IMG/VR virus record: IMGVR_UViG_3300026549_001501
Coordinates: 35,348-99,347 of that record
Reading direction: 5' to 3' (one strand)
Length of the DNA: 64,000 nucleotides
From: a virus
Lineage: Duplodnaviria > Heunggongvirae > Uroviricota > Caudoviricetes
Numbering within the stretch: the first letter of the stretch is position 1; every line of letters begins with the position of its first letter. The translations under genes were made by a program, and so were the position numbers. Positions 5,501 to 19,934 of this stretch are shown here, in pieces. A model generated the notes under the pieces. It saw only the letters and a program-made list of their open reading frames with translations, had not been told where the DNA came from and made no database searches.

Positions 5501-5675
5501 TGCCCACGACAGGATTCGAACCTGTGACCGACGGATTAGCGCGTAAACTACGCTTCGAACGTAAACAGAGCTACATGCATGTACTCAACCCCGCTTTCTC
5601 CCATAATACGCGTGTTCGTCTCGGTGAACAATACCGTATGAAATCCGTTGCTCTATCCAACTGAGCTACGTGGGC
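5501..5675 (-). tRNA. tRNA-Arg(TCT) interrupted by a ~101-nt intervening sequence (about 5540..5640) inside the anticodon, after T34
   Basis: The 5' half (GCCCACG-TAGCTCAGTTGGATAGAGC-ACGGA-TTT) and 3' half (CTAA-TCCGT...ACAGGTTCGAATCCTGT-CGTGGGC) have 7/7 acceptor complementarity. The body closely resembles E. coli tRNA-Arg(UCU). The insert carries a GGGAGAAAG box and a 3'-proximal TACGTTCGAAGCGTA hairpin. Confidence 0.55.
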
Positions 5676-5950
5676 AAATTTTTCTATCGTCCCTGTCCGC
5701 GATAGGGCTTCACATAATTCTTTGAAGTCTTATTCTTTGAAATAACTCCCGGACGCTTTTTGTGTAACTTTACTAACATAATACAAATATAATTATTTTT
5801 CTTTCTTTTCCAAAATTCTTTCGTTTATCCAATCTTTTGCCTCGAGGATACTATGGAATAAATGAGGACCGTCGCTCAGGTTTATAACCTTGAACAGCCT
5901 TCTATGCTCTATCTTATATCCCTTATAATATGTAATTTCAATCTTTGGCA

Positions 5951-6799
5951 TTAGACACAATGTATATCCTTAAAATAAACTATATTCTCGTCTTCGTAAC
6001 TTTCAACAGTAACTTCGTACTTAATGAAGTCAATGAGGCTGTCGCTTGTAAATCCAACGAGAACAACCGTACTTCTATCACAGGCGTATCCGTGCTCTAT
6101 ATCGGATTTAATTTGACCGCCATCTCTAACGATGGTATATGAACGAAGCACGTGTTCCTTTTTCTTCTTCGGAATTTGCTTATTTGTCACTACTTCCCAT
6201 TCAAAATCATCAATTTCATGGTCAAAATCCATAAAGAATAATTTTCCCAACGGCGGTGATAACGGGCACGGTTCTATTTTTGTAAGCTTGCCGATTTTAC
6301 GAACCCAATCCCTCGAAGTGTTCCGTCCATGTAAATAACTATCCTTATATTCCCCTTTCCATAGGTTTCCTGTGAATTTTTTGTTCTTGATATCGTACTC
6401 CATTTCGACGAATATATGCTTTTCGTCAGGAGTGTCGTCGTTATATTCTACGCGGTATGTAATACCTTCATGAGTGTACTTATCTAAATTATCGTAATTT
6501 CCACAACAGAACATTTGCGTCATTGCGGGCCATTCTATCCCGTCAGGAGTTTTTCTCTTCTCATCGCAGGCTGCCTTGATCTTATCAAAAAGCGGAATCA
6601 GACGAGGCTCATTAATTTCTTGAAATTTACCTTTAAATTTTACAGGTATCTTATTGAGAGCCTTATCTATTGCTTTCTGACATTCAGCACAGTAATCCAT
6701 GCTGCACCCTTCCTCAGTGCCATACTCAGGACCATTTCCGTAGGTGCAATAGGTGTATTCCCTCTGACAGTGCTTACAGCGTAAAATTAGATGTTGCAT
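5951..6799 (-). CDS. hypothetical protein with N-terminal Cys cluster, 282 aa
   Basis: Long ORF with N-terminal CxxC...CxxC pairs. No other motif. Confidence 0.5.
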   Translation of the reverse strand: MQHLILRCKHCQREYTYCTYGNGPEYGTEEGCSMDYCAECQKAIDKALNKIPVKFKGKFQEINEPRLIPLFDKIKAACDEKRKTPDGIEWPAMTQMFCCGNYDNLDKYTHEGITYRVEYNDDTPDEKHIFVEMEYDIKNKKFTGNLWKGEYKDSYLHGRNTSRDWVRKIGKLTKIEPCPLSPPLGKLFFMDFDHEIDDFEWEVVTNKQIPKKKKEHVLRSYTIVRDGGQIKSDIEHGYACDRSTVVLVGFTSDSLIDFIKYEVTVESYEDENIVYFKDIHCV

Positions 6800-6980
6800 T
6801 GTGTTGTTTTCTTTTTAAAAATTCACAAAATAGCATCGTTGCGGCGAATTTAGTTTTTTTCTTTGCGGCTTTGAACTTATTTTTATCAATTGTTCTTTCA
6901 CGATGCTCTTCCAATTTCTCAAATAACCGTATCATAGTAATAATTTATGAACATTCTATTCAAATATACTAAAAAAATGC

Positions 6981-7020
6981 AAAAAACCCGCCAGGTGGGA
7001 ACCTAACGGGCATTTTTTTG
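6981..7020. terminator. bidirectional intrinsic terminator-like hairpin
   Basis: AAAAAACCCGCC-loop-GGGCATTTTTTT: a stem flanked by an A-run and a T-run. Confidence 0.45.
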
Positions 7021-7549
7021 CCGCTTATTGCATCGCTGCGACTGGGGAACTACGGTTGTTCGGAGCATCTTGTCCCCCAAGACAAGACTCTGTACGTAGA
7101 TTACACTACCTTTGGAATCCTAAGATTCTTTACAAGGTTTTACCCTCCTGTTGGCAAGACGCTTCTCTGGTGGTTTATGAATTATATCCACATTAGCCGA
7201 CACGCGGCTCAGTACAAGACTCACGAGCAACCCAACACTAATTATTGGCGCCGTTGGTTTCATACCCTTGTCAGGGATTGCCTCGCTACTACTTGGCAAG
7301 TTCCTTCCTCAAGGAAAGGATGAAGCGGGACGTTTTTACAAGACGTCGTACTTGTTGAAAACTGTTCAGACATTGCACTATCGCACTTTCCGCAGTTGGA
7401 TGTCGTACCGCCGAAGCGATAAAGCTTATCTGTGCATAACAACCTCCCGTTTATTATGACGGGCGTGCTCCCCGAACAATTATATTTCAAATTTACAAAT
7501 CTCCTTTGGAAAAGTGTATATTTTCAGTTAAATTTCCTTTGGAAAAGCG

Positions 7550-8332
7550 TTAATTATTTTTTATGTCATTGATAGTAAGTTTTTTACGGTGAAACCTTTT
7601 ACTATCTTTATTTAATGAGCCAAAATTAGGTGTTAAACTATGGCAATTCGGGCAAAGTAATTGCAGATTTTCAAGTTTGTTGTTTGTGCAATCACCGTCT
7701 ATATGGTGTACTTCTAAAGGTATTTTTCCTGTAGTTTCATTCTTTTTTCCCCACCCGCATTTTTCACATTTGTTATTATGTATTTTTAGAAGATATTTTT
7801 TTATAAACTCAGGTAATTGCCCTCCTGCTCCTCTTGTAAAATTTTCTCCTTGCAGCCATCGTTCAATTTTCTTTTTTCTTTCATATTCTATATGGCAAGT
7901 ATTACTACAAAATTGTCCACGTTTTATTGGTTTCCCGCAATTAGCGCATTTTTTATTGATTTCTTCTTCAATAAGGTTTCCGCCAAGGGACTTAGATATT
8001 TTTATTCTTGTTTCTAAAGAACGCGGCCCTCGTATTACATTGTTATATTTCGCGGCGCAAGAAGAAGAACAAAATTTATTAAACCTTTGTTCATACGTAA
8101 GTTTTTTACCACACGTCTCGCAATATCTCGGTTTTTTTTCGTACTCTTCTCTTGTAATCCTATTTTTATAATACTTTCCGTCTATTCCGGCTTGTTTTTT
8201 AATCTTTTCTATGAAACGCCAAGATGCACCATTATTCTTTCTGCCAAAATATCTTATTACTTCAAGTTCTGAATTACATTGTTCAAATGCTTTTAATATC
8301 TCCGCAGTTGTTATGCTATTTTTTTCTTTCAT
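7550..8332 (-). CDS. HNH homing endonuclease with repeated Zn-finger modules
   Basis: C-terminal HNH motif (VHHIDGDCTNN...LCPNCH). There are three KFCSSSCAAKYNN-type Cys modules. It sits between tRNA genes. Confidence 0.7.
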   Translation of the reverse strand: MKEKNSITTAEILKAFEQCNSELEVIRYFGRKNNGASWRFIEKIKKQAGIDGKYYKNRITREEYEKKPRYCETCGKKLTYEQRFNKFCSSSCAAKYNNVIRGPRSLETRIKISKSLGGNLIEEEINKKCANCGKPIKRGQFCSNTCHIEYERKKKIERWLQGENFTRGAGGQLPEFIKKYLLKIHNNKCEKCGWGKKNETTGKIPLEVHHIDGDCTNNKLENLQLLCPNCHSLTPNFGSLNKDSKRFHRKKLTINDIKNN

Positions 8333-8400
8333 ATTTTTCCCTTTTATTAATAAATATATAAAAGGGAGAAAAAATCAAGCCGAACGTACATTTTTTCTTA

Positions 8401-8475
8401 GGGTGAGTAGTCAGGTTCGAACTGACATAAACCACATCCACAGTGTGGCCCCTAAACCATTCGGGCATACTCACC
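8401..8475 (-). tRNA. tRNA-His(GTG)
   Basis: Cloverleaf with acceptor GGTGAGT/ACTCACC, anticodon stem CCACA/TGTGG, loop CTGTGGA, T-loop TTCGAAC and discriminator C. Confidence 0.7.
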
Positions 8476-8941
8476 ATATAAACAGACTTTCAGTTATACG
8501 TATGCTGCCCGTCTGTCGTGGGCCCACGCATGGGTTCCTATTCGTTTCGCGGCTTGTCCATGAGCCGTCATAGCACATATGACTGAATTTTGCTATGCTT
8601 TTACCCCCTTTTGAAAAGCCTTTTCGGCTGGGTTTCAGTCGGTCAATTACCTGCAGTTCAGTGCCCTTATTGTTGCCTTACTCCCTGAATGATTGGAACA
8701 TTTCTGTCGAACGCCCATACGGGGCTTACATGCCTAGATAACCGCCACTTTACATGGACGCCGTGGGAGGATAACTTTCATTTGCAACCACGGCATTCGT
8801 CTGCCAATCTTTTTACTGCATATGTCTCAACGCTCAATGTGGTAATGCGCACTTCCGCAAATTTTACAGTCGGTGTTTTACTCTCATAAACTATCTCCTT
8901 ATTCGGACTCTGCAGACTTGAACACGCTTCTCCGACTTGTA

Positions 8942-9013
8942 GCGTTGTCTTGAGCGGTAGAGGAGGCTCGAACTCCCAACCTTCTGCATGGCAAGCAGAC
9001 TATCTACCATTGA
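8942..9013 (-). tRNA. tRNA-Gly(GCC)
   Basis: GCGGTAG...TCTGC-TTGCCAT-GCAGA...GGGAGTTCGAGCCTCC-CTACCGC-T. Confidence 0.8.
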
Positions 9014-9144
9014 TATACTACCGCATAATACTTCTTTTATACTAACCCCAGAGAAGTATAGAACTGTGCCAACCTACGATTTGGAGGAATAGTATGCTTC
9101 TTCGAGAGAGGCCTTTCCCATCTTCGTTCCCGCCGCGGTACGGG

Positions 9145-9387
9145 CTAATCTCCTTCTTTTAACGTCTTCTCCCGCTTAACTATTTTTAACCCATCATTGA
9201 TACGTTCAAGCCATTTTTCCTTGTCGGGAAGTTCAGTATCTTTCAATACATCCTTGAAACCATTTAACAATCTTTCATTATTTTCGCACGCTTCTATAGA
9301 AACAAGTGAATCTGCGCTGATCAAATTTACATAAAAAAAATCAAGCTGCCCTGTGTTAAATAATTGATTAATGAATAAAGGCGTCAT
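9145..9387 (-). CDS. hypothetical small protein (start moved to an internal Met because the long ORF overlaps tRNA-Gly)
   Basis: The 5' part of ORF 9145..9462 is occupied by tRNA-Gly(TCC). The internal start is at MTPLFINQ. Confidence 0.3.
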   Translation of the reverse strand: MTPLFINQLFNTGQLDFFYVNLISADSLVSIEACENNERLLNGFKDVLKDTELPDKEKWLERINDGLKIVKREKTLKEGD

Positions 9388-9404
9388 AAAATTATTTTTT
9401 TTAG

Positions 9405-9477
9405 AGCGGGAAACGGGGCTCAAACCCGCGACCTGGAGCTTGGAAGGCTCCCGCTCTATCAACTGAGCTATTCCCGC
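9405..9477 (-). tRNA. tRNA-Gly(TCC)
   Basis: GCGGGAA-TA-GCTCAGTTGATAGAGC-G-GGAGC-CTTCCAA-GCTCC...GCGGGTTTGAGCCCCGT-TTCCCGC-T. Confidence 0.8.
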
Positions 9478-9585
9478 GTTAAATCTACAGCCACTACCCT
9501 GTAGAACGGTACGTACCTACGATTACGCTGCAACGATAGGAGTATGCAGGGTTACGATTCCCGGCGCCTTATTGGGACCGTATTT

Positions 9586-9972
9586 TTAACTAACTTTCGT
9601 TATAAAAATCACCTCAGGGTGTTCCCCGAAAACTGTGTGAGTAACATTGCAAAGCCAAACGGTTAACGGAAATTTGCTATCTTCATTAAGAGTCTTATCC
9701 ATTATTTCATTGAATAAAAATCCATTTAATGAATATGTTGCTCCGTCATCGTCATGATCAAGAATTGTCAACTTTAATAAATATTGTTTCGGCTCGACAA
9801 TACTTAGGACAAACCCCGTTTCCATTTCAACTTCAACAGAATCTTTTCCATTTGATAGCAATTCACACATTTCGTCAGCACCCAAAACCATCTCATTATC
9901 TTCAAGACTATGCTCGGGAACGTCGGCATACCAACGCCCGTCTTGCTTGAAAAATTTAAGTTTTGTTTTCAT
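9586..9972 (-). CDS. hypothetical protein, 128 aa
   Basis: ORF downstream of, and apparently co-oriented with, the endonuclease gene. Confidence 0.45.
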   Translation of the reverse strand: MKTKLKFFKQDGRWYADVPEHSLEDNEMVLGADEMCELLSNGKDSVEVEMETGFVLSIVEPKQYLLKLTILDHDDDGATYSLNGFLFNEIMDKTLNEDSKFPLTVWLCNVTHTVFGEHPEVIFITKVS

Positions 9973-10820
9973 AATAAGTTATTATAAAAAGTCAAAAACT
10001 CGTTTATCTTTTCCCGCATTTTCTGTCGTCCCGCATCGTTATTTATTGTATTCCATTCAATTCGATAAATTGTGTACCCATGTTCTCTAAGGAAACAATC
10101 TCTTTCGGCGTCATGCGTTTGTCTACGTTTATGCTGTCTACCGTCAATTTCTAAATCTATCTTCTTCCCGTTTCTTTCAATTAAAAAATCAAGAAAGTAC
10201 TTTTTTGTTGAAAAATCCTCTTTTATAAAAGGTATTTTATTGTTTATTAAAACTTTTTCCCAAAATATCTCCGGGTATGAGTGAATGTTTCTTGTTTGCC
10301 ATCCGGAAAACGTCCCTTCTTTTATCCTTTCGTATGCCTTCTCTCTAATTTTATTTTTTACTTCTTCACTGTTATGTGCACATTGTTGACAACAATACTG
10401 GGCATTCTTATTTACTGAGGTAAATACTTTTCCGCAATGTTTGCAAACTATCTCATACTCTTTTTTACCAACTTGTCCATTCTTCAGTAATGAATGTTGT
10501 TGCAACGCCTCAGAAATCTTTTGCTTTGTCTCTTCTGATAAAGTTCTCTTTCGGTTGTTGTATTTAGCAGCACAAGATGAACTACAAAATTTTCTATTCC
10601 CGTGTATTACCTTACCGCATTGAAGGCAGCGCTTCTCTTTGTTTTGTTGTATTATATTTACAATATCAATATTGTACTCACGAGAGCAGTATTCAATTAT
10701 TTTCTTTTGTACGTTACCATTTGTGTATTTTACACCATAAATGATATTAGCGCATTCAGTAAATGTCTTACACTTCAAAAGTTCGTCTAGTTTTGTTTTA
10801 TTTTCCATAAAAATTGCCAT
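9969..10820 (-). CDS. homing-endonuclease-like protein: Zn-finger modules plus C-terminal Vsr-like (DUF559, PD-(D/E)xK) nuclease domain
   Basis: KFCSSSCAAKYNN modules as in 7550..8332. The C-terminus (FLDFLIERNGKKIDLEIDGRQH...DAERDCFLREHGYTIYRIEW) matches the Vsr/DUF559 pattern. Confidence 0.6.
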   Translation of the reverse strand: MAIFMENKTKLDELLKCKTFTECANIIYGVKYTNGNVQKKIIEYCSREYNIDIVNIIQQNKEKRCLQCGKVIHGNRKFCSSSCAAKYNNRKRTLSEETKQKISEALQQHSLLKNGQVGKKEYEIVCKHCGKVFTSVNKNAQYCCQQCAHNSEEVKNKIREKAYERIKEGTFSGWQTRNIHSYPEIFWEKVLINNKIPFIKEDFSTKKYFLDFLIERNGKKIDLEIDGRQHKRRQTHDAERDCFLREHGYTIYRIEWNTINNDAGRQKMREKINEFLTFYNNLL

Positions 10821-10875
10821 ATACTATAAATATAGCAATAAATCGAAAAATGTCAAGTCGAACCAAGTTTTTTTG

Positions 10876-11029
10876 TCGGGGTGACAGGACTCGGACCTGC
10901 GGCCTGATGGTCGAGCGACACGTAAGATTCGAACTTACGAAACTTCCAATATTGTGTCGCTTCACCAATTTCTCAGCCATTGGTTAACTGTAACCAAACC
11001 ACCCGCTCTACCAACTGAGCTACACCCCG
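10876..11029 (-). tRNA. tRNA (probably Pro(TGG); Glu(CTC) not excluded) interrupted by a ~81-nt insert in the anticodon loop
   Basis: 5' half CGGGGTG-TAGCTCAGTTGGTAGAGC-G-GGTGG. 3' half CCATC-AGGCC-GCAGGTCCGAGTCCTGT-CACCCCG-A. Acceptor 7/7. The insert contains hairpin TTGGTTA/TAACCAA and a T-loop-like hairpin CGTAAG-TTCGAAT-CTTACG. Confidence 0.5.
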
Positions 11030-11173
11030 ATATGTGGACTCGCTTTTTGGTTTTGTATAGCGATATCTACTATTACGTATTCCAAATGTTTTACCGCGTC
11101 GAGTCCGCACGCGAACCGATATTTTAAGTGCTCGGTATACAGTTTCGACCATCCTGCTTCCATTACACTTTTG

Positions 11174-11295
11174 CGCAACCGTTGGGCGTCGAACCCAAAG
11201 CCTTCTGTAGTACTTTTGCCATTAAGCTGTTAGCAAAAGCAGATGGTATCGCGCTCACCGCGACGGGAGCTACCCGTAAACCAATGTTCAGTTGC
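11174..11295 (-). ncRNA. tRNA-like structured RNA element, copy 1 of 2 (homolog at 56835..56953)
   Basis: A closing 7-bp helix GCAACTG/CGGTTGC plus a T-arm-like hairpin TTGGG-TTCGACG-CCCAA. It is about 75% identical to the plus-strand copy, with compensatory changes in both helices. Confidence 0.45.
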
Positions 11296-11476
11296 GTTTT
11301 CTTCTACCAAGCAATTTCTTGCCCGTTTACCTTTAATTTATCACATTTACCCCGCCTGAGCCTTGTGTGAAAAATTTTTTTCATTTTCTTCCTGAATTTT
11401 AGCCATTGCTTTCCTTTGCTTCCGGTAAATTCTTCAGGATACTCTTTTAATGAATACATAAATTTTAATGTTTTGC

Positions 11477-11745
11477 GGAGAGGGAGGGATTCGAACCCCC
11501 GGGCCCGTGAAGGCCAACGGTTTTCCTTGCTACATCGCTTTCACATTGTAGTCTGGACTTTCTCTTCGTCCGTTCTGGACGTCTCCTGTAAAGTCTCTAC
11601 ACACTGTCTTTAAACATTGGCTCGGTATTACCATCAGCATTACATGTTAAGGCTTCACCGAATTAGGGAGATTCTACTTTTATCATTCCTGATAAAGCAC
11701 TCGAATTAACAAGACCGCCGCAATCGACCACTCTGCCACCTCTCC
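11477..11745 (-). tRNA. tRNA-Ser(TGA) containing a 184-nt group I intron (11527..11710) between U34 and G35
   Basis: The exons give a class II tRNA (GGAGAGG-TG-GCAGAGTGGTCGATTGC...GCGGT-CTT|GAAA-ACCGT, long variable arm, T-arm). The intron carries ACCGAGCCAA and GTGTAGAGACT, which match 9 of 9 and 11 of 11 nt of my recollection of the Azoarcus tRNA-Ile group I intron. The 5' exon ends in U and the intron ends in G. Confidence 0.6.
11527..11710 (-). other. compact group I intron (IC3-like) in tRNA-Ser(TGA)
   Basis: See the tRNA entry above. The P7-region motif GUGUAGAGACU and the CCGAGCCAA motif are shared with the 599-nt intron in tRNA-Leu(TAA) at 54927..55525. Confidence 0.55.
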
Positions 11746-11938
11746 ATATATTTCAACAACGGTTATCGGATTTCCGTAGTCACCGATATTTGGAAACCTC
11801 TCGTAGTTACATATTGACGAGCCTTACCCGTGACCATTTCCTTATCCAATTTTCACACCCTTCTCCGTCATCCATTTTCAGACAGATATGCTATAGGCGT
11901 CCCATCTTGGCCGTTGTATTTTTCAAAGAACGTTTTTG

Positions 11939-12020
11939 TGCGCCTGGCAGGACTCGAACCTGCACCCCTTACGGGACCAGATCCTAAGTCTGGCGCGTCT
12001 ACCAATTCCGCCACAGGCGC
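11939..12020 (-). tRNA. tRNA-Leu(TAG)
   Basis: Class II tRNA. Acceptor GCGCCTG/CAGGCGC, anticodon loop CTTAGGA, long variable arm, T-loop TTCGAGT. Confidence 0.8.
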
Positions 12021-12077
12021 TTTTAAAGAGATTTTTGCAAATATACAGATTTTGATCAAAATTTACAATTTTTTTTG

Positions 12078-13218: not shown

Positions 13219-13288
13219 CCGTATGTTGCTTTCTAAATTAGTATGTCGCCACCAATAGTCCATAATTTAATTCTTTATTTTAGCCAAG

Positions 13289-13374
13289 CGGAGAGCAGTG
13301 GGATCGAACCACATCCGAAAATATGGACGCACAACTTAGCAGGTTGCCGCTGTCACCGTTCAGCATTACTCTCC
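13289..13374 (-). tRNA. tRNA-Ser(GCT)
   Basis: Class II tRNA. Acceptor GGAGAGT/GCTCTCC, anticodon stem GCAAC/GTTGT, loop CTGCTAA, long variable arm. Confidence 0.65.
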
Positions 13375-14148
13375 TTTATAATAAAAATTTTTCCAATCTT
13401 TATATTCTTTTTCTATACTTAAGCTTCGTAAGAAATCATAAGAATAAAGTTCTTTTTTTGTGTGTAAAATTCTATGATGATTTGGACACACAACTATTAA
13501 ATTTCCATTTTCATCACTGCCTCCATCTTTTTTGGGTACAATGTGATGCACATCGCAAGTTGATTCATTCCAACCACAAATAGCACATTTACAATTTGCT
13601 TTTTTTAAAATTTTTATCATGGTTGTTTTTGGCAGTTCCAAAATTGATTCAACCTTATCAATATATTTTCTACCTATGCTTTTTTTACATTTCTTACAAA
13701 GGCAATTTCTTCCTTCTTTTACTTTCCTTCTAGAAAAAAATTCTTCTCCACAGTTCTCACAAATGTAGCGATATAGAACCTTTTCTCTTGGATTACTCTT
13801 GTTAAATTCTTTAAGGGATTTAGACGTCTTTTCTCTATGCGCAACTGTAATTACACGTTCTTTATTATTGAACTTTGCAGCGCAGCTTTTTGAACAAAAT
13901 TTATCTTGCCCTTTTTTTAACTTTTTTCCGCAGCAAGTGCAAAACTTAGAAGGATGTTGCCTCTCTTTGTATACTGAAAAATCAAACCCTACAAGTTCTC
14001 CAACTTTCTTTAGAATCTTATTATGCTCAGTATTATCAGATACACCAAAATACTCAAAGATTTGTTTCTTACTCTTGAAAGAGTCAAAAAGCTCAAAGTA
14101 TTTTTTTATATCTTCTTTACTGTTTATTTCAATATTAAATTTTTTCAT
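13366..14148 (-). CDS. HNH homing endonuclease with Zn-finger modules
   Basis: KFCSKSCAAKFNN-type module. C-terminal HNH motif CDVHHIVPKKDGGSDENGNLIVVCPNHH. Confidence 0.7.
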   Translation of the reverse strand: MKKFNIEINSKEDIKKYFELFDSFKSKKQIFEYFGVSDNTEHNKILKKVGELVGFDFSVYKERQHPSKFCTCCGKKLKKGQDKFCSKSCAAKFNNKERVITVAHREKTSKSLKEFNKSNPREKVLYRYICENCGEEFFSRRKVKEGRNCLCKKCKKSIGRKYIDKVESILELPKTTMIKILKKANCKCAICGWNESTCDVHHIVPKKDGGSDENGNLIVVCPNHHRILHTKKELYSYDFLRSLSIEKEYKDWKNFYYKGE

Positions 14149-14213
14149 TGTTTTACCCTTTTCTAATAAATATAAGAAAAGGTGGAAAAGTAAAGGTTTA
14201 AACTTGAAAAAAG

Positions 14214-14302
14214 TGGGAGAGAGTGGATTCGAACCACCAATGTTTACCCTGTGGGAACGGATTTACAGTCCGTTACGACACCACCATCGTCGCTGCTCTC
14301 CC
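14214..14302 (-). tRNA. tRNA-Tyr(GTA)
   Basis: Class II tRNA. Acceptor GGGAGAG/CTCTCCC, anticodon loop CTGTAAA, long variable arm, T-loop TTCGAAT. Confidence 0.7.
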
Positions 14303-14718
14303 ATAATCTCAGTCTATCCTGAGTGTCACCGTACGATTTTTTTAACTTAACGAGCGCAGGAGTCCCGGTGAAACCTGCTCAGATTTAAGGCACTTAACTG
14401 TAGGATGGACTCTCACCATCGTCTCCCGGTAAAATCCAGGGCTTCTCTCTCTTAAAGCTTCTACAATGCCTTTTTGTACCGTATGTTGGAATCGAACCAA
14501 CTTCCTCTCCCTGCCCCGGGAGCGAGTTTTGTGTCTCCGCAGACTTGCAATCTGCAAAATAAGCCGTGTTGCAAATTAACTTATTCCCGAATGCAGTATC
14601 CACTTCTGTGCGTCTCCAACACTCTCATACGGCGACAAGTCAGCGTGTATGCATCACCTTCTGACGTTGTGGGGCAAGTTTATATTAACCTATCGCGTAG
14701 GCAACTTCGCCTGCCTTG

Positions 14719-14790
14719 TGGACCGTAGGGGACTCGAACCCCTCCTATAGGCTTGCAAAGCCCACGTGCTACCACTATCACTAACGGCCC
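14719..14790 (-). tRNA. tRNA-Ala(TGC)
   Basis: Acceptor GGGCCGT/ACGGTCC including G3-U70, anticodon stem TGGGC/GCCTA, loop TTTGCAA. Confidence 0.75.
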
Positions 14791-14797
14791 AATTAAG

Positions 14798-15202
14798 TGG
14801 AGATGACGCGACTCGAACGCGTGTCTTTCAATGTGAAAAAATGCTTTCTACATGCTTATTCACTGTTAGTCAATTTTAAACGGTACGGTAGCGAAGAACC
14901 TTATCCATTCTACATCCATTTTGGAATCTTATTCTTTGGACAAATGGAAATCCTCAGAAAGTACCTCAGTGTCGATGATATCCGTATTGACGAACCCACC
15001 TCGGTTCAGAAATCCGTCACGGATAATGGCCCTCCCGCTGCCTTGGCGGAAATGGGTTAAGCAAATCTACTCTGTAGATTAAGCAGCCATTCTGAAAGTG
15101 TTGTTGCCAACTATTGTTTGGAAACTGAGATCAAAGGGCAAATTTCCGACGCCCTGCATGCTTGCACTCTCCCTTCAATGAAGTCAAAGCCAAAACATCC
15201 CC
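14798..15202 (-). ncRNA. ssrA: tmRNA (ssrA), phage-encoded. Predicted tag peptide (A)GNNTFRMAA
   Basis: The 5' end (GGGGATGTTTTGGCTTTGAC) parallels E. coli GGGGCTGATTCTGGATTCGAC. The 3' tRNA-like end is GACACGCGTTCGAGTCGCGTCATCTCC-A. The acceptor helix has a G3-U70 pair (alanine identity). Internal AAUAGUU|GGC AAC AAC ACU UUC AGA AUG GCU GCU UAA mirrors the E. coli AAUAGUC|GCA resume context and ends in -AA plus a stop. It sits immediately downstream of a TATATTTG promoter. Confidence 0.7.
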
Positions 15203-15206
15203 ATTT

Positions 15207-15229
15207 TCAATGAACTTTTGCAAATATAT
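15207..15229 (-). promoter_or_regulatory. repeated minus-strand promoter module, copy 2 (drives tmRNA and the downstream tRNAs)
   Basis: -7 box TATATTTG, with a -33 TTTG (AAATTTGGAT) about 20 nt upstream on the minus strand. Confidence 0.5.
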
Positions 15230-15262
15230 GGATTATATTTTAATAATCCAAATTTTTCTTTG

Positions 15263-15335
15263 TGGAGCCGATGGGAATTGAACCCACCACAGTCTGCTTG
15301 CAAGGCAATCTCGCCACCTTGGATCATGCGACCCC
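15263..15335 (-). tRNA. tRNA-like, Ala(TGC)-type anticodon loop but weak D-arm (possible pseudo or atypical tRNA)
   Basis: Acceptor GGGGTCG/CGGCTCC. The T-arm is good (GTGGG-TTCAATT-CCCAT). Anticodon loop CTTGCAA with a 4-bp stem. The D-stem pairs poorly. Confidence 0.4.
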
Positions 15336-15348
15336 ATATATTTCAATC

Positions 15349-15419
15349 TTTTGTGCTCCCGTCGGGAATCGGACCCGAAGCCGCGGATTAAGAGTCCGCT
15401 AGTCTACCATTAGCCTACA
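15349..15419 (-). tRNA. tRNA-Lys(CTT)
   Basis: Acceptor GCTCTTG/CGGGAGC, anticodon stem GCGGA/TCCGC, loop CTCTTAA. Confidence 0.7.
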
Positions 15420-15427
15420 AGAGCTTT

Positions 15428-15498
15428 TCCTGTGCTCCCGACGGGGCTCGAACCCGGATCCGACGGTTAAAGGCCGCCTAGTCTACCATTGACCTACA
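15428..15498 (-). tRNA. tRNA-Lys(TTT)-like (C33 in the anticodon loop CCTTTAA)
   Basis: Paralog of the preceding tRNA (same acceptor and D-arm). Anticodon stem GGCGG/CCGTC. Confidence 0.5.
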
Positions 15499-15506
15499 AG
15501 AGCAAT

Positions 15507-15578
15507 CCAAGTGCTCCCTGAAGGATTCGAACCCTCACTAAAACATCCGTAGTGTTTCGTGCTTTCCATTACACCAAG
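15507..15578 (-). tRNA. tRNA-Arg(ACG)
   Basis: Acceptor GCTCCCT/AGGGAGC, anticodon stem AAACA/TGTTT, loop CTACGGA. Confidence 0.75.
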
Positions 15579-15585
15579 GGAGCAT

Positions 15586-15658
15586 TTCGGTGGCCCCGGC
15601 GGAACTCGAATCCGCGACCCCCTCATTAAAAGTGAGGTGCTCTGCCAACTGAGCTACA
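15586..15658 (-). tRNA. tRNA-Lys(TTT)
   Basis: GGCCTTG-TAGCTCAGTTGGCAGAGC-A-CCTCA-CTTTTAA-TGAGG. The loop is identical to E. coli tRNA-Lys(UUU). Confidence 0.8.
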
Positions 15659-15763
15659 AGGCCATGTTGTATTCCTACCCATCTGCCCCGAGTCAGTCGG
15701 TTAGCAGACGTTTATATCCGTTTTCGTATTTGCTTTCGTTTTATCATAACTTTAAATCTTTTG

Positions 15764-15836
15764 CGGGGCGGGGTGGATTCGAACCACCGACGCCGGGCTC
15801 TTCAGGCCCGCGCTCTACCTACTGAGCTACCGCCCC
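15764..15836 (-). tRNA. tRNA-Phe(GAA)
   Basis: GGGGCGG-TAGCTCAGTAGGTAGAGC-G-CGGGC-CTGAAGA-GCCCG...GGTGGTTCGAATCCACC-CCGCCCC-G. Confidence 0.8.
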
Positions 15837-15856
15837 AATTAATATTTCAAATTTCG

Positions 15857-15930
15857 AGTCGAGAATCGGATTCGAACCGATGAATGCTAGTTTTGCAGAC
15901 TAGCGTGTTAGACCACTTCACCACCTCGAC
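15857..15930 (-). tRNA. tRNA-Cys(GCA)
   Basis: Acceptor GTCGAGG/TCTCGAC, anticodon stem CTAGT/ACTAG, loop CTGCAAA, T-loop TTCGAAT. Confidence 0.75.
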
Positions 15931-15965
15931 ATTTATCACTATTTAATTTTTGGGAAAGCCTTTGT

Positions 15966-16005
15966 CCAAAAAAAACCTCCGAATGTCTTTTGGACTTGGA
16001 GGTTG
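15966..16005 (-). terminator. intrinsic terminator-like hairpin (minus strand) upstream of the tRNA block
   Basis: Minus-strand sequence AACCTCC-(17 nt)-GGAGGTT followed by TTTTTTTT. Confidence 0.4.
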
Positions 16006-16235
16006 GAGAGTTTGATATATGTTGTACCGCTTAGCGGTTGTGGGTTCGGCTTTACCCTATTATATCTTATTATTCCTACCTCCATACGACGGCCATCCAA
16101 AGCGGGCTTTGAGAAGCGCCTTGGGTGCAATACTTGAAAAATAATATGAACACAATGCCGTCATGTCTCTGACTTTTTAATTGATCAAAAAATTCTATTC
16201 GTAAATAAATATACGAAACTTTCAAAAAGTTTCAA

Positions 16236-16258
16236 TATCACTTTGCAAATATACGGAA
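16236..16258 (-). promoter_or_regulatory. repeated minus-strand promoter module, copy 3 (variant)
   Basis: TTCAATATCACTTTGCAAATATA is the same module with three substitutions. The -7 box is TATATTTG. Confidence 0.35.
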
Positions 16259-16321
16259 AATTTTTTAAAAAAACAAATTTCATTAAACAAATAAAGCCGT
16301 AGGATTTTCCCTTCGGCTTTT

Positions 16322-16576
16322 TTACTGCTCCTTTACATATAGTTTACAGCAACATTTATTTTTTAATCTGTAATTTGAACAAGCGCATTTCTTGTCTTCC
16401 GAATCATTATCGCAAGGGCAGTTTCCGTCATTGCGGTTTATTGCCTTAATAATTCCGTTCACAATTTTCTCATTTGGATTTAGTATCCACCCCTTTTTAC
16501 AATTCTTTTTCGCTTCTTCTATTGTCATAATATATTTGTTAACGTCTATATACGAAAAAAACGCGCCTTTCGGCAC
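16322..16576 (-). CDS. small Cys-rich protein, 84 aa
   Basis: The C-terminus (GNCPCDNDSEDKKCACSNYRLKNKCCCK) is likely metal-binding. Confidence 0.4.
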   Translation of the reverse strand: MPKGAFFSYIDVNKYIMTIEEAKKNCKKGWILNPNEKIVNGIIKAINRNDGNCPCDNDSEDKKCACSNYRLKNKCCCKLYVKEQ

Positions 16577-18231
16577 GTTTCCTCTTTGTGGTTAGAAGAA
16601 ATTTCGCAACGTCTTCTACCTGTGAGTCGGGCTGAGTCGTGACCCTCTCGCCACACCGTTTTCGTCCCTTTCAGGCCTAGAACACATCCTTGTTTCCAAA
16701 GATAGGTGGGATGCAGACGGATTCTAAGTTCCGCAACTACTACGTGATGTTATATAAAGTACTTCGTTCTGCCCTTGCTCCTTGCGAGATACGGAAGCGC
16801 TACCCTCCTACAAGTTGCATACTTGTTTCGTTTCTACGATTTCCTTGCGGTACTCTCGCAGCCACCATATTACAGGTGGATAACTGCATTGTTGCATCAC
16901 GTGCGCAACACTTTTGCTGAATTTTTTGATTTACACATAACCATAAAAACGTGCTTTTCATCGTTTTGCGCAAATACACCGAGTTTGGAAGACGTGGTTG
17001 CGCTTTATACCATTCCACCTTTTGAGTGGAGTAGGCATATACGCCTTCCTGCTTTCACCTGCCAAGGCTACTAACTATACAACCTATCCTTCCTACCATT
17101 TCTGAGCCGCGTTGCCACACGCAGCCGTTGCATTGGCTACGACATAGGAAGAAGATCTTCTTCATAGACTCCATAAGACTGGCAATCTTTTTTAGTCTAT
17201 GCATACCCTATATGTCGGAGTTACCTCCCAAGACGACGCCAGTGCTGCGCCGCCGCGCCCAACTATCGGCTCTGCCCGAGCCTACAAACCGTTGAAGCGT
17301 TTAGAGTATGGCTTTCACGTGAAGTGAAATACCCTCCGTAGAGGAGTAAATCACCGCCGATGGATGCATTTGCATACAGAGCCTTCGACTTTCCCAGCTT
17401 ATGGATTCACTGGTTATTCTGTTGACGGGAAGCCCGCCATCTCTTCTTTTCAAAGAACTTCGCAGCGCTTGCGTCCGCTGCTGGACTGCTTGCCGCTTTT
17501 TGCGGCGTGACGGCTGACAACCGTCGTGGAAATTCGCCGCCCAAAGGAGTCGCGCCGTTTTCACGCGTCGGGGGCGGCACGCCCGGCTTGTCACACCGGG
17601 GAGTGAGTTGGCTTTGGGGGAGCCGGGGAGCCAAGGGCAGCGGTTTTCGCTGTCGGGGCTGCCGGCATATTCATATTCGGACTGCCAACCAAAGTCCGCT
17701 GCGGCCGTGCCAAGGGGCGCTAACTAATTCCGAGTTTTCGGGTAGATGGCCCGGGCATTTTTTGCCGCAAATCCTGCCAAGGTGTGAAGTCGTTCGAATT
17801 TTCGAAAATATCTGTTCACGAAACCGAGGCGATTTATAAATACACCGTTGTTTCCAAAAGTGCACTTATTTTTCTAAAATTTCTCAAAGAACTTTCACTT
17901 TTTTGCTCGACGCAGACTTGCTGTCTCAATCGAACAATGCAAATATACACCTTTTTTTCTTAAAAACCAAATTTTTTTGATTTTTTTTTTCGAAAAAATG
18001 ATCAAATTTTAACCACTCGCGTCCCACCGTCCTGTTGCTTTCTTTCTCATTGGTATAACGCCCAAAACATTTCCCCGCCGGGATTTGTTTCTTAAATAGG
18101 CTCCCACATCGGAAGTACCCGTGTACTGTTCGCTTACGCCGTTCCAGCGCCACCGACAGGGACAGATACACTGTTGCTCATACGCCCAAGCCTTGTCCGT
18201 TGATTTGATCAAATATTTCAAAGATGTATGG

Positions 18232-18302
18232 CGGTCATTAGGGGAGTTGAACCCCTGACTCCGGCGTGACAAGCCGGAAGTTTACCGCTAGCCTAAATGA
18301 CC
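18232..18302 (-). tRNA. tRNA-Asp(GTC)
   Basis: Acceptor GGTCATT/AATGACC, anticodon stem CCGGC/GCCGG, loop TTGTCAC, discriminator G. Confidence 0.75.
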
Positions 18303-18657
18303 ATTTTAACCGTTCACGCGCACGGTAGACACGCTTGACTTACGATTCAACCCGCAACGATAGTAGTATACGGTGTTACGTTCTGCCCGTCAGCAGCCAA
18401 TCATACGGCGGTGACTCATTATGCGGAGCCGAAACTCTCTCTGTACAGTAATGATGCGCACCGTTTATAAGTTATCTCCTGTTAGCTTCGGGTGGGCATG
18501 CCGGACCAAATCGTCCATCACCCTTGGCACCTTACCGTTATACTATGGCACTCACAGTCCGTCTTGTATAAAGGGTTTCCTATCCACATGAGCAAAAATA
18601 TAAGTCGGATTTTTCACCTATTATACGCTCCCTCGGAGATTATTTTCAAAGAACTTG

Positions 18658-18729
18658 CGGGGACACATGGATTCGAACCATGATAGACGGATTAACAGTC
18701 CGCAGTAATAGCCTTTATACGATATCCCC
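18658..18729 (-). tRNA. tRNA-Asn(GTT)
   Basis: Acceptor GGGGATA/TGTCCCC (one G-U pair), anticodon stem GCGGA/TCCGT, loop CTGTTAA, T-arm CATGG-TTCGAAT-CCATG. Confidence 0.7.
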
Positions 18730-18962
18730 AAATTTTACAGGCACGTAAACGAAATGCCCTCAGACTTCCCAATAGTTTACATTTACCGTCTTCAAACTAT
18801 TATGTGGCTCCTTCACACCTACGAAAAACCGACTTTATCAACTATCCATGGTATAGTATATAGGCAATTTGTCAACGCACCACTGCCAAAACCGATGGTT
18901 CTCTTATTACGCTACACCAAAAAGAGCGGGTCTGTTTACTTTATTAATTCCATTTTTTTTCG

Positions 18963-19138
18963 TGGGAACGCACAGATTCGAACTGTGGACCCCCTGCTTG
19001 TGCTGGTAAATTACGCTTCGGACGTAAATTGATGCAACAATTGATTTGCAATTCACTTTCTCCCGTTTTACCAAATATCCGTCACAGTGGATAATTCTGT
19101 AGAAGGCAGGTGCTCTAAACCAGCTGAGCTACGTTCCC
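18963..19138 (-). tRNA. tRNA-Val (probably CAC anticodon) interrupted by a ~101-nt insert in the anticodon loop
   Basis: 5' half GGGAACG-TAGCTCAGCTGGTTTAGAGC-A-CCTGC-CT. 3' half CACAA-GCAGG-GGGTC-CACAGTTCGAATCTGTG-CGTTCCC-A. Acceptor 7/7. The insert carries ACGGGAGAAAG and TACGTCCGAAGCGTA followed by 9 nt, homologous to the 5540..5640 insert. Confidence 0.55.
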
Positions 19139-19727
19139 TTTTTAATCACCTAAGACTAACGCGCTTGTGTGTCATTCGCAATGCACTAGGTGTATAACTT
19201 TTTTTATACGTGCAGTTTCTAACCCCTTTTGCAACCCCTTTTCGCTACTTTACGTGTCCTATATTTGAGTTAATGACGCCATCCTACGAATACTCATTGC
19301 AACATTTAACCGTGGCTTCTTCACATTGTCTCAATCTGTGAAGTTCCCTCCTACGGTGAGGCCGTTAGTCGGATTTGACTTTTCTCTATATATTTTCAAT
19401 GAACTTTTTCAACTTGTGTGGAATGGGGCATCTTCGCGCCACACACGCCGTTATTACGCTCCCCATCAGCGCTCGTACCGTCCCTGCACGCGGCACGCTT
19501 ATTCCGTAACATAGTCGGCTTGATTTCTCAAGAACCAAATGTAACCACCATTGAATTTCCGACACAGGTGAAATCAATATCTCAAGACTGCCCTTAGATT
19601 TAAGCTTACCTACGCACAGTGAGGTACTAAGGCGGTTCGTTCAGGTTGCCCGATATTATCTAGAATTAAGCGGGTCCTCGTGCGTGTCAAACGGGCATGG
19701 ACAGACAGCCTTCCACAGTCTTAATTT

Positions 19728-19751
19728 TCAATGAACTTTTTGCAAATATAA
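19728..19751 (-). promoter_or_regulatory. repeated minus-strand promoter module, copy 4
   Basis: The reverse complement reads TATTATATTTGCAAAAAGTTCATTGAA. The -33-like AAATTTGGATG lies 20 nt upstream. Confidence 0.45.
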
Positions 19752-19781
19752 TAAAAATAGATCAAACATCCAAATTTTTTT

Positions 19782-19934
19782 GTACTCCCGCTGTGAATCG
19801 AACACAGATTTAGGGTTTAGTCGGTATTTTACGCTTCGGACGTATACAGTTCTGCATTCTCCCATATTACCGAAGCCCGTTTCGGTGGGCTACTCCGTAT
19901 GGAAACCCTCGTTCTATCCGTTGAACTACGGAAG
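19782..19934 (-). tRNA. tRNA-Arg (probably CCT anticodon) interrupted by a ~80-nt insert
   Basis: 5' half GCTTCCG-TA-GTTCAACGGATAGAAC-G-AGGGT-TTC. 3' half CTAA-ACCCT-AAAT-CTGTGTTCGATTCACAG-CGGGAGT-A. The insert begins CATACGG, as in the 5540..5640 insert, and contains TATGGGAGAATG and TACGTCCGAAGCGTA followed by 9 nt. Confidence 0.5.

Follow-up and report, generated by a model that had tools for sequence, protein, structure and literature searches.

Four tRNA genes in a 64,000-nucleotide (nt) stretch of a caudoviricete virus genome (IMG/VR record IMGVR_UViG_3300026549_001501, positions 35,348 to 99,347; hereafter the window) are interrupted in the anticodon loop by compact inserts. Comparison with homologous inserts in other phages gives good support to the view that they belong to a family of small, structured, apparently mobile introns in the anticodon loops of large-phage tRNA genes. 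Each intron combines a 5′ module organized around an invariant UAC helix with a 3′ module that resembles the end of a tRNA. Below we describe the evidence for the splice sites, for the two modules and for the family as a whole, and weigh how these introns could be removed.

Four split tRNA genes in the window

The interrupted genes encode tRNA-Arg(UCU), tRNA-Pro(UGG), tRNA-Val(UAC) and tRNA-Arg(CCU), and all lie on the minus strand (Table 1). A sequence-only reading of the window had described four tRNA genes with perfectly paired acceptor halves, separated by about 80–101 nt. Apart from the strand, which we corrected, this description stands: the Rfam tRNA model extends across each insert, the acceptor, D, anticodon and T arms are perfect around all four by inspection, and the inserts measure 101 (Arg-UCU), 81 (Pro), 101 (Val) and 81 nt (Arg-CCU). 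ARAGORN called none of the four split genes in the window, where it found 25 uninterrupted tRNAs and one transfer-messenger RNA (tmRNA). The window has a phage-like GC content of about 41% and is part of a 131-kilobase (kb) ENA contig. A DNA similarity search against 50,697 GenBank phages returned trivial tRNA matches only and no close relative.

The possibility had been raised that these are inactivated genes. We consider this unlikely, because the split genes are the only Val, Pro, Arg-UCU and Arg-CCU genes in the window, both exons are intact here and across many phages, the tRNA-Arg gene with its intron is identical at 201/201 positions in L129 (a relative 95% identical over 6.8 kb), and paired positions covary across the 27 family copies described below.

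Intron-less genes and anticodons fix the splice sites

Throughout the family, introns start with one variable nucleotide followed by TAC-R-G and end in one unpaired C that follows the 3′ strand of a closing helix. The window introns accordingly start ATACGG, CTACAG or TTACAG, which places them at positions 34/35 in tRNA-Val, 35/36 in both tRNA-Arg genes and 36/37 in tRNA-Pro. The Pro junction is unambiguous because phage L041 carries an intron-less tRNA-Pro gene that is identical across it. The first 36 nt of that gene equal the window Pro 5′ exon (36/36), its sequence GGTGGTTTGG/GACCATC (the slash marks the splice junction here and below) is exactly the predicted ligation product, and the joined window exons match it at 69/73 positions, with compensatory differences in the T stem.

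Other tRNAs agree with this register. The tRNA-Pro body (C1–G72, A73) requires an NGG anticodon, and the corrected register alone yields the 7-nt loop UUUGGGA. Likewise, the Val gene of L080 (CTTA/A-TACAG...GC-C/CAA) and the Asn gene of L038 (CTGT/A-TACGG...AAG-C/TAA) have a sensible anticodon in the corrected register only, and joining the window Val exons recreates a 28-nt tRNA-Val(UAC) anticodon arm that is found intact in >120 viral contigs. In Lak megaphages, natural intron-less alleles move the tRNAscan-predicted Thr intron by one nucleotide (Devoto 2019, PMC6784885), a shift that agrees with the family boundary rule.

The sequence-only reading had set the boundaries one nucleotide off, with introns beginning CATACGG and a 3′ exon starting with C. 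We rejected this register, which gives the Pro body an 8-nt loop or an Ala anticodon, the L080 Val body a Gly anticodon and a short-arm tRNA a Ser anticodon. Several earlier statements change with it: the two inserts said to begin CATACGG truly start ATACGG, the insertion positions given as 33/34, 34/35, 35/36 and 37/38 are replaced by those above, and the discussion of whether the flanks obey the U...G rule of group I introns does not hold as argued, being built on the shifted boundaries. The interval of "exactly 9 nt" between a shared hairpin and the exon resolves into a 2–3-nt spacer and the 3′ strand of the closing helix, followed by the intronic C.

The 5′ module is a covarying pseudoknot with invariant nucleotides

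One variable nucleotide past the 5′ splice site, U-A-C-R-G (nt 2–6; helix S1) pairs with C-Y-G-W-R. In most copies this partner lies in the loop of a 4–6-base-pair (bp) hairpin (S2), and the module forms an H-type pseudoknot. Across 18 gap-free sequences the S1 pair R5:Y17 is A-U in nine, G-C in nine and mismatched in none, and double changes occur in four of the five S2 pairs. In the same set 92% of cells are paired, compared with 19–39% when the partners are slid, and 0/500 shuffles reached the observed covariation. A metagenome search pattern that left R and Y free gave a consistent result, as all tRNA-embedded matches (15/15) had matching R/Y and many chance matches did not. The Val intron of L051 offers a further example, with S1 as TACGG and CCGAA at the equivalent place, a compensated change relative to window Val.

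The 18 typical copies share U2, A3, C4, G6, C14, C16, G18, A21, C22 and G23 of the 27-nt module without exception. Since U2, A3, C4 and G6 are invariant though the partners of U2 (A/G) and A3 (A/U) vary, these nucleotides appear to have a role beyond pairing.

The 3′ module resembles the end of a tRNA

That the 3′ module is a tRNA mimic, in which an acceptor-like helix is stacked on a T-loop arm, is well supported. A closing helix of 6–13 bp is present in 27/27 copies, in 24 different sequences; it starts 0–5 nt past S2 and ends one nucleotide short of the 3′ exon. The remaining nucleotide is a single unpaired C, the last of the intron in 27/27 copies, and the 3′ exon begins immediately after it. 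A shuffle control for this helix is too permissive at ≥6 bp, where 22% of shuffles pass; the 8-bp class discriminates, being observed in 22/27 copies versus 4% of shuffles. Inside the closing helix sits a T-loop-type arm, a 4–5-bp hairpin with a 7-nt loop (TTCGAAT, TTCAAAT or TYCGAAG), which abuts or nearly abuts the 3′ strand. The two commonly stack to about 13 bp, and in the window this is exemplified by the Pro intron (8+5 = 13 stacked bp).

The rest of the module ranges from nothing, through a GG-containing joiner, to a full cloverleaf with a crippled anticodon arm. It may contain D-loop-like GG and anticodon-arm-like elements, and the joiner GGGAGAA of window-type copies plausibly takes the part of the D loop. 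The minimal introns, in L112 and L118, have 61 nt and consist of the pseudoknot and a 13-bp hairpin, the 3′ module of L118 being a bare 13-bp minihelix. Much fuller versions occur: the intronic element of L115 scores 52 bits on the Rfam tRNA model and has a cloverleaf fold, that of L079 is called by ARAGORN as a tRNA with a 4-base anticodon, and Rfam finds a tRNA within the Lak Thr intron. The four window copies all have the tRNA-like fold (acceptor-like helix plus T arm), in degenerate form. Comparing window Pro with L080 Pro is instructive, as the 5′ modules are almost identical and the closing helices and T stems are wholly different yet compensated, with the T-loop kept.

A wider family of phage tRNA introns

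The four inserts had been read as homologous, with a common GGGAGAA(A/T)G box and a common hairpin, TACGTYCGAAGCGTA. For Arg-UCU, Val and Arg-CCU homology is clear (86–91 bits, E ~1e-20) with a covariance model built from these three and three relatives. The model missed the Pro insert, which belongs with the others by its shared architecture and its close relative in L080. The box (GGGAGAAWG) occurs in three of the four inserts and is lacking in the fourth; the hairpin is exact in three of the four, and Pro has the related GTAAG-TTCGAAT-CTTAC, with the canonical loop TTCGAAT.

Three independent motif patterns, run on IMG/VR and JGI/ENA metagenome contigs together with one covariance model and a rule-based parser, yielded 27 distinct homologous inserts of 61–136 nt. 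All are on large-phage contigs, several of 112–411 kb (L038, L041, L079, L080 and L115), and all lie in anticodon loops of phage tRNAs: Arg-UCU/CCU, Val-UAC, Pro-UGG, Gly-UCC, Thr-UGU, Asn-GUU, Met/Ile-CAU, Glu-UUC, Gln-UUG and Tyr-GUA. A first combined motif scan of viral contigs had given no matches, its pattern being too strict. A hairpin-only scan of viral contigs gave 72, with three true family members; most of the matches inspected were ordinary tRNA-Arg(UCG) anticodon arms on the opposite strand.

The earlier suggestion of elements that target anticodon loops is in line with the apparent mobility of these introns. L087 and L092 carry the same intron (108/113 positions, 96%) in two tRNA-Arg(UCU) genes with exons that are identical at 20/36 and 23/38 positions, or about 58%. 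Among phages, one tRNA species may be interrupted at adjacent positions (Val at 34/35 or 35/36; Gly and Glu likewise). In the window, a free-standing endonuclease gene of the Vsr/DUF559+NUMOD3 type (9969-10820, minus strand) immediately follows the intron-bearing tRNA-Pro. In L080 a tRNA-Pro intron is likewise paired with a Vsr-type gene, its protein being 41% identical, and L041, with its intron-less tRNA-Pro, has no Vsr-type endonuclease gene of this kind. In cyanophage psbA, an intron and a free-standing endonuclease engage in collaborative homing; by analogy, the above distribution suggests that the Pro intron and the Vsr-type endonuclease form a mobile pair. Two HNH homing-endonuclease-like genes also lie among the window tRNAs (7550-8332 and 13366-14148, both minus strand).

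Related sequences occur outside recognizable anticodon loops. Solo intron-like elements (a UAC pseudoknot plus a tRNA-like piece) are present in L041 (8653-8760, plus strand), L106 and L038 (minus strand, at index ~630 and ~10249, respectively). The L041 and L106 copies have a common tRNA-like part, ATGGTTG...CCAGG-TTCGAGY-CCTG-CAACCAT, and unrelated upstream flanks. From such copies, the 5′ module may be a general signal to cut just upstream. We also noted two odd inserts that could represent other intron families or degenerate variants: an interrupted tRNA in L038 (4729-4843, minus strand) has a different insert of roughly 40-50 nt with no TACRG, and a tRNA-Lys(UUU) in L112 (40-167, minus strand) has an insert of ~55 nt that starts TGTACCG and ends ...TATATGCAC.

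The window introns are related to the enigmatic introns of Lak megaphages

Tabulated Lak sequences place the window introns in a known but uncharacterized kind. "Enigmatic introns" were reported in tRNAs of Lak megaphages, one of which "may itself encode a tRNA", with no structure or mechanism proposed (Devoto 2019, Nat Microbiol, PMC6784885). A 2026 survey repeats the remark, and our full-text literature searches found no described mechanism for Lak-type tRNA introns. The proposal that the window inserts form a new class of tRNA intervening sequence is thus right in that they are a distinct, apparently mobile class, and has to be qualified in that the class had already been sighted in 2019.

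Like the window introns, Lak introns are inserted in the anticodon loop of a phage-encoded tRNA and show N-TACA(A/G) paired with (C/T)TG.., then an A/T-rich linker, a closing helix around a T arm, and C (Table S6). In Gly(UCC), for example, the arrangement is CTTCC/A-TACAA-GAATAAAC-TTGTA-AAATTAAA-CTATATGC...AAGAG-TTCGAAT-CTCTT-GCATATAG-C/AA, where the T arm directly abuts the 3′ strand of the helix. The end signature is seen in four Lak introns (Gly, Thr, "Tyr" and Phe); the Phe copy deviates, with TAACAG at the 5′ end and AC after the helix. There are also differences. The Lak 5′ helix is a plain 5-bp hairpin, and the window copies add a second hairpin that makes it a pseudoknot; the Lak pair A6-U16 corresponds to G6-C16 in the window, which is further covariation; and the window copies, unlike those of Lak, have a reduced tRNA mimic with a GGGAGAA joiner. 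The phages are unrelated in composition, with a GC content of 26% in Lak and 41% in the window phage. Applied to the Lak A1/A2 "tRNA-Tyr(GTA)", the boundary rule gives CTGT/intron/TAA and hence the anticodon GUU, on a body with a short variable loop and G73. Judged by these sequence features, this tRNA is probably tRNA-Asn(GUU) instead.

Comparison with known introns and RNA-processing elements

The sequence-only reading had judged the inserts far too short for group I introns, and our results agree. There was no Rfam Intron_gpI match in the window at the gathering threshold or at E<5–10, and we rejected this class for the lack of a P3–P9 core, the terminal C in place of the omega G, and a length of 61–136 nt, under half that of the smallest group I introns. 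The 5′ site also lacks a U·G pair, as the last nucleotide of the 5′ exon is C, T, G or A depending on the tRNA. Inspection found no exon-complementary guide sequence: complements of the 5′ loop were sought in L1, the joiner and the linker, with nothing consistent, and exon–intron guide pairing was rejected. The group I introns of cyanobacterial tRNA-Leu, Azoarcus tRNA-Ile and Patescibacteria resemble the window introns in being mobile, lying in the anticodon loop and being removed at the RNA level, but their P1–P9 core, guanosine-binding site, terminal G, U·G pair and size of ~200 nt or more have no counterpart here (PMC13011429).

Archaeal and eukaryal tRNA introns are also cut and rejoined in the anticodon loop in a protein-dependent way, with the tRNA body holding the exons and a repair-type ligase (RtcB or heal-and-seal) joining them. 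Their bulge-helix-bulge motif consists of two 3-nt bulges that contain the splice sites, with a 4-bp exon–intron helix between them; in the phage family, by contrast, the recognition elements are entirely intronic. We rejected such a motif for the window introns: the nucleotides before the 3′ site pair within the intron, in a closing helix of 24 covarying versions, the 5′ site lies 1 nt ahead of an intron-internal helix, and minimum-free-energy folds are without the motif. Nor are the splice sites symmetry-related, one lying 1 nt 5′ of a helix and the other 1 nt 3′ of a helix. Pfam found no EndA/Sen endonuclease in ~60 window open reading frames (ORFs), six flank ORFs and ~10 kb of the left flank, which together cover part of the 131-kb contig.

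Small self-cleaving ribozymes were considered as well. Searches of the intron alone (E<10) and of 16 kb (E<5) matched none of the Rfam hammerhead, hepatitis delta virus (HDV)-like/theta, twister, twister-sister, pistol, hatchet and hairpin families, and by hand mapping neither the HDV-like P1/P2/P3 order, nor pistol (including a permuted form), nor the hammerhead CUGANGA/GAAA core fits. HDV-like theta ribozymes are comparable as small structured RNAs of phage tRNA clusters, which set tRNA ends by cutting at their own 5′ edge independently of what lies upstream; they differ in having a nested double pseudoknot (P1–P4) and in lying downstream of tRNAs rather than inside them (PMC10879173), and the window introns have no Rfam match to them. 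A DNA transposable element (a miniature inverted-repeat or IS200-IS605-like element) was also rejected, since removal of the insert restores the L041 tRNA-Pro junction with no duplication; in addition, the intron ends are not inverted repeats, and the helices contain G·U pairs, which make sense only for the RNA strand.

The 3′ splice site (a helix plus one nucleotide, then the cut) matches a tRNA 3′ end, and here tRNA punctuation offers the nearest parallel. In animal mitochondrial transcripts, plant mitochondrial t-elements and the MALAT1 mascRNA, an embedded tRNA-like fold defines RNase P and RNase Z cuts. Those systems differ from the phage introns in that the flanks are released and never rejoined, whereas the phage flanks are tRNA halves that need ligation, and in that exon 1 and the mimic of the phage introns are separated by a further conserved element, the 5′ module.

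A model in which the intron is cut out and the anticodon loop repaired

Among the 29 tRNA genes of the window (for example at 8401-8474 and 15353-15663), 28 lack an encoded CCA; they read N73-C (discriminator plus C), in most cases followed by an A-rich spacer (for example ...GCAC, then AAAA). Only tRNA-Asp (18229-18302) encodes the full CCA. The tRNAs therefore need 3′ maturation, by host or phage enzymes. Phage T4 has CCA-less tRNAs as well, and these depend on RNase BN/Z. Neighboring tRNAs in the window arrays are only 5–7 nt apart, so that RNase P-type punctuation is presumably the normal processing route. The C that follows the acceptor end in the window tRNAs has a parallel in the C that invariably ends the introns.

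The same contig encodes a set of RNA-repair proteins. At L128 14466-19954, 4–9 kb past the left end of the window, lie an RNA ligase of 463 amino acids (L128 18563-19954; phrog_968, 4e-34, full length; Pfam RNA_ligase plus PHA02142 OB; a weak DraRnl-type match), an HD plus P-loop polynucleotide kinase (kinase–HD phosphoesterase; L128 17329-18492), a Thg1-like 3′-5′ polymerase (1.6e-23) and one or more metallophosphoesterases. The window itself adds HAD_SAK_2 and cREC_REC cyclic-phosphate-processing domains (Table 1). We found 27 relatives of the RNA ligase, all on contigs other than the intron-bearing ones.

Neither the exon nucleotides flanking the two sites nor the spacing from the anticodon stem is constant, so recognition must be intron-borne. 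We tentatively favor a cut-and-rejoin model, to which we give slightly less than an even chance: the mimic would mark the 3′ cut, the UAC helix the 5′ cut, and the phage ligase would rejoin the ends. The intron alone would specify both cuts. By presenting the 3′ splice site as a tRNA 3′ end, the mimic would attract the enzyme that matures the CCA-less phage tRNAs, of the RNase Z/BN type or a phage equivalent, and RNase P would probably cut at its 5′ edge as well. At the 5′ splice site, for which the invariant UAC helix would serve as the mark, the cut could come from self-cleavage, from a dedicated nuclease or from RNase P working on a pseudoknot that resembles an acceptor. The exons would stay together as a nicked anticodon loop, held by the anticodon stem and the remainder of the tRNA, and the RNA-repair set (ligase, kinase–HD phosphoesterase and metallophosphoesterases) would heal and seal the nick. 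The cutting agents at both sites are putative. For RNase P as the 5′ cutter, with an S1+S2 stack of ~12 bp and the "A-C" after S1 as a mimic of positions 73–74, we found no support beyond analogy; the Tyr copy of L038 has ACCA directly after S1. The variable partners of the invariant U2 and A3 speak against a simple acceptor mimic at the 5′ site. Exonuclease trimming of the 5′ module was rejected, as the distance between anticodon stem and splice position ranges from 3 to 5 nt.

Several observations weigh against this model. The invariant U2, A3, C4, G6 and terminal C go beyond what RNase P or RNase Z requires, and point to catalysis or to a sequence-specific factor. If RNase P measures from the T-loop, its expected cut is where the closing helix begins on the 5′ side, and the 5′ module would then remain on exon 1. 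A C that directly follows the helix or discriminator may also be an anti-determinant for some RNase Z enzymes. The kinase and the cyclic-phosphate enzymes are a better fit to 2′,3′-cyclic-phosphate and 5′-OH ends than to those left by RNase P or RNase Z, and defense against host anticodon nucleases may be the sole purpose of the repair kit. The window 3′ modules are degenerate: their helices have 6–8 bp, their spacers 2–3 nt, and none reaches the Rfam tRNA threshold. Finally, we infer the splicing of the four tRNAs from sequence evidence.

Alternative explanations

The invariant nucleotides could instead belong to one or two new small self-cleaving ribozymes, the UAC pseudoknot cutting upstream of itself and the helix-plus-C end cutting after its C. 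The products, with 2′,3′-cyclic-phosphate and 5′-OH ends, would be healed and sealed by the phage kinase/phosphoesterase and ligase, or by host RtcB. The many invariant nucleotides in a 27-nt 5′ module fit this explanation, as does the irrelevance of the exon nucleotides at the cut, which recalls HDV-like or hatchet ribozymes that cut their own 5′ edge. The phage encodes cyclic-phosphate and kinase functions, the solo modules of L041, L106 and L038 hint at a general element that cuts upstream of itself, and phage tRNAs use HDV-like theta ribozymes for end processing (PMC10879173). However, no known ribozyme matches in Rfam even at E<10, the topology is unlike the HDV, pistol and twister folds or the hammerhead core, the 5-bp hairpin of the Lak 5′ module is very small for a catalyst, and the strictly conserved tRNA mimic would have no role. 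On balance we regard self-cleavage as unlikely.

Alternatively, a dedicated phage or host endonuclease could recognize the UAC helix and the helix-plus-C end and make both cuts, with the mimic as a binding handle and the phage ligase joining the exons. Sequence-specific invariants are indeed found at both intron ends, the ligase kit is present, and many ORFs of no assignable function lie in and around the tRNA island, such as 5951-6799 beside tRNA-Arg. Among those near the split tRNAs, 5951-6799, 20030-20374, 20388-20894 and others have no Pfam match; the three named have no PHROGs match either, and 5951-6799 also has none in PDB. Yet in the loci examined the introns are not accompanied by any candidate nuclease family, the HNH and Vsr/DUF559+NUMOD3 genes look like DNA homing enzymes, and a family that spans phages from 26% (Lak) to 41% GC would need a common enzyme in all of them. 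These points make a dedicated nuclease quite improbable.

We see little chance that no splicing occurs and that the inserts are selfish tRNA-like insertions that killed their genes, or processing cassettes that yield tRNA-like RNA or tRNA halves. Splicing is itself a deduction from sequences, solo elements exist outside tRNAs, and release of the mimic by RNase P and RNase Z would give tRNA halves. The integrity of the genes speaks against it: the exons are intact and covarying, the window Pro T stem is compensated relative to the L041 intron-less gene, the four isoacceptors have no other gene in the window, conservation in L129 is perfect and interrupted tRNAs persist across many phages. Moreover, Lak populations contain intron-containing and intron-less alleles of otherwise identical tRNAs (Devoto 2019, PMC6784885). 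A fully self-splicing new intron class, with two protein-free transesterifications, is most improbable, for although recognition does not depend on the exons and the compact, conserved structure, in which S1, S2 and the closing helix can stack, could bring the splice sites together, a hairpin and tRNA-mimic core of 61–136 nt is far below any self-splicing intron, has no terminal G, exon-pairing guide or branch-site-like element, and in the minimal 61-nt copies (L112, L118) comprises only the pseudoknot and a 13-bp hairpin.

Features of the introns and their surroundings

Table 1. Coordinates of the split tRNA genes, their introns and associated features in the window. A slash in a sequence marks the predicted exon–exon junction.
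Feature	Position	Strand	Evidence or remark
Split tRNA-Arg(UCU)	5675..5501	-	Rfam tRNA model end to end, 56.3 bits
Arg(UCU) 5′ exon, 36 nt, ends ...ACGGA-TTTC	5640..5675	-	boundary by family rule
Arg(UCU) intron, 101 nt, A-TACGG ... TACGCG-C, position 35/36	5539..5639	-	covariance model 86.1 bits; 100% identical in L129
Arg(UCU) 5′ module	5613..5638	-	S1/S2 covariation across 18 sequences
Arg(UCU) S1, TACGG with CCGAG within hairpin S2	5638-5634 with 5624-5620	-	
Arg(UCU) S2, TGTTC with GAACA	5630-5626 with 5617-5613	-	
Arg(UCU) 3′ module	5540..5612	-	closing helix CGCGTA (5612-5607) with TACGCG (5545-5540)
Arg(UCU) joiner GGGAGAAAG, then variable hairpin	5602-5594 (joiner)	-	
Arg(UCU) T-loop arm TACG-TTCGAAG-CGTA	5563-5549	-	
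Arg(UCU) terminal unpaired C	5539	-	
Arg(UCU) 3′ exon, 38 nt, starts TAA-TCCGT	5501..5538	-	
Split tRNA-Pro(UGG)	11029..10876	-	Rfam tRNA model end to end, 48.5 bits
Pro 5′ exon, 36 nt	10994..11029	-	36/36 to intron-less L041 tRNA-Pro
Pro intron, 81 nt, T-TACAG ... GTGTCGCT-C, position 36/37	10913..10993	-	junction from L041; relative in L080 tRNA-Pro
Pro 5′ module	10964..10992	-	S1 TACAG (10992-10988) with CTGAG (10976-10972)
Pro S2, ACCAAT with ATTGGT	10984-10979 with 10969-10964	-	module nearly identical in L080 Pro
Pro 3′ module	10914..10961	-	8-bp helix AGCGACAC with GTGTCGCT abuts T arm GTAAG-TTCGAAT-CTTAC
Pro terminal C	10913	-	
Pro 3′ exon, 37 nt	10876..10912	-	
Split tRNA-Val(UAC)	19138..18963	-	Rfam tRNA model end to end, 52.4 bits
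Val 5′ exon, 36 nt, ends CCTGC-CTT	19103..19138	-	
Val intron, 101 nt, C-TACAG ... TTTACCAG-C, position 34/35	19002..19102	-	covariance model 90.6 bits
Val 5′ module: S1 TACAG with CTGTG, S2 TATCC with GGATA	19076..19101	-	
Val 3′ module: helix TTGGTAAA with TTTACCAG	19003..19074	-	
Val joiner GGGAGAAAG, then variable hairpin	19064-19056 (joiner)	-	
Val T-loop arm; terminal C	19026-19012; 19002	-	
Val 3′ exon, 39 nt, starts ACAA-GCAGG	18963..19001	-	
Split tRNA-Arg(CCU)	19935..19783	-	Rfam tRNA model end to end, 43.8 bits (sensitive scan)
Arg(CCU) 5′ exon, 35 nt	19901..19935	-	Rfam tRNA 43.8 bits, sensitive scan
Arg(CCU) intron, 81 nt, A-TACGG ... TACCGA-C, position 35/36	19820..19900	-	covariance model 91.2 bits
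Arg(CCU) 5′ module: S1 TACGG with CCGAA, S2 AGCCC with GGGCT	19874..19899	-	
Arg(CCU) 3′ module: helix TCGGTA with TACCGA	19821..19873	-	joiner GGGAGAATG (19863-19855)
Arg(CCU) short hairpin, then T-loop arm; terminal C	19844-19830 (T-loop arm); 19820	-	
Arg(CCU) 3′ exon, 37 nt	19783..19819	-	
Predicted junction, Val			...GAGCACCTGCCTT/ACAAGCAGGGGGTC
Predicted junction, Pro			...GGTGGTTTGG/GACCATCAGG
Predicted junctions, two Arg tRNAs			...ACGGATTTC/TAATCCGT and ...AGGGTTTCC/TAAACCCT
Window members of the RNA-repair repertoire	37561-38410; 4325-5245; 33715-34482	+; -; +	

The tRNA island contains other structured RNAs. Its phage tmRNA (14795-15202, minus strand; 119.7 bits, tag peptide GNNTFRMAA) adjoins tRNA-Ala, and tmRNAs are also found in the tRNA islands of the relatives L051, L079 (in permuted form) and L095. 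With tRNA-Cys on one side and tRNA-Asp on the other, positions 16642-17049 (minus strand) give a full-length but sub-threshold match to GOLLD RNA (54.7 bits against a gathering score of 150, E 4e-12), and may represent a divergent GOLLD-like large structured RNA. A marginal tRNA match at 55767-55837 (plus strand; 29.6 bits, at the gathering threshold), for which ARAGORN makes no call, may be a degenerate or unusual tRNA. Adjoining the island, at 341-955 and 978-2994 (both minus strand), is a counter-defense and nucleotide-metabolism cluster that comprises a Tad2-like anti-Thoeris domain protein, an IMPDH/GMP-reductase-like gene and an ADP-ribosylglycohydrolase.

Implications for phage tRNA biology

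To our knowledge, bacterial-type tRNAs are thought to be interrupted by group I introns only, and protein-dependent tRNA splicing is considered archaeal or eukaryal. The compact introns described here interrupt tRNAs of at least ten amino acid specificities in large phages that come from several environments, and share one anatomy that includes the four Lak introns and fits neither known scheme of tRNA splicing. To the 2019 remark on enigmatic introns this adds a unifying anatomy, splice sites anchored by an intron-less orthologue, a family that extends beyond Lak, and a testable cut-and-rejoin model with defined nucleotides that is tied to phage RNA-repair genes.

Whether these introns constitute a third mechanistic class of tRNA splicing, in which a mobile intron bearing a tRNA-end mimic and a UAC helix is excised by tRNA-end enzymes or a new mini-ribozyme and the gap is sealed by a repair ligase, seems to us an evenly balanced question. 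In such a class, a phage repair ligase that is normally viewed as an anti-defense tool would complete splicing, and this route could let the element spread into any broken anticodon loop. If the mimic does recruit tRNA-end enzymes and the phage ligase seals the exons, a single system would connect tRNA punctuation with RNA repair and intron mobility. An excisable cassette of ~60–80 nt would then also be available to RNA engineers, and for the phages themselves the supply of particular tRNAs (Arg-AGR, Val and Pro) would depend on their own enzymes.

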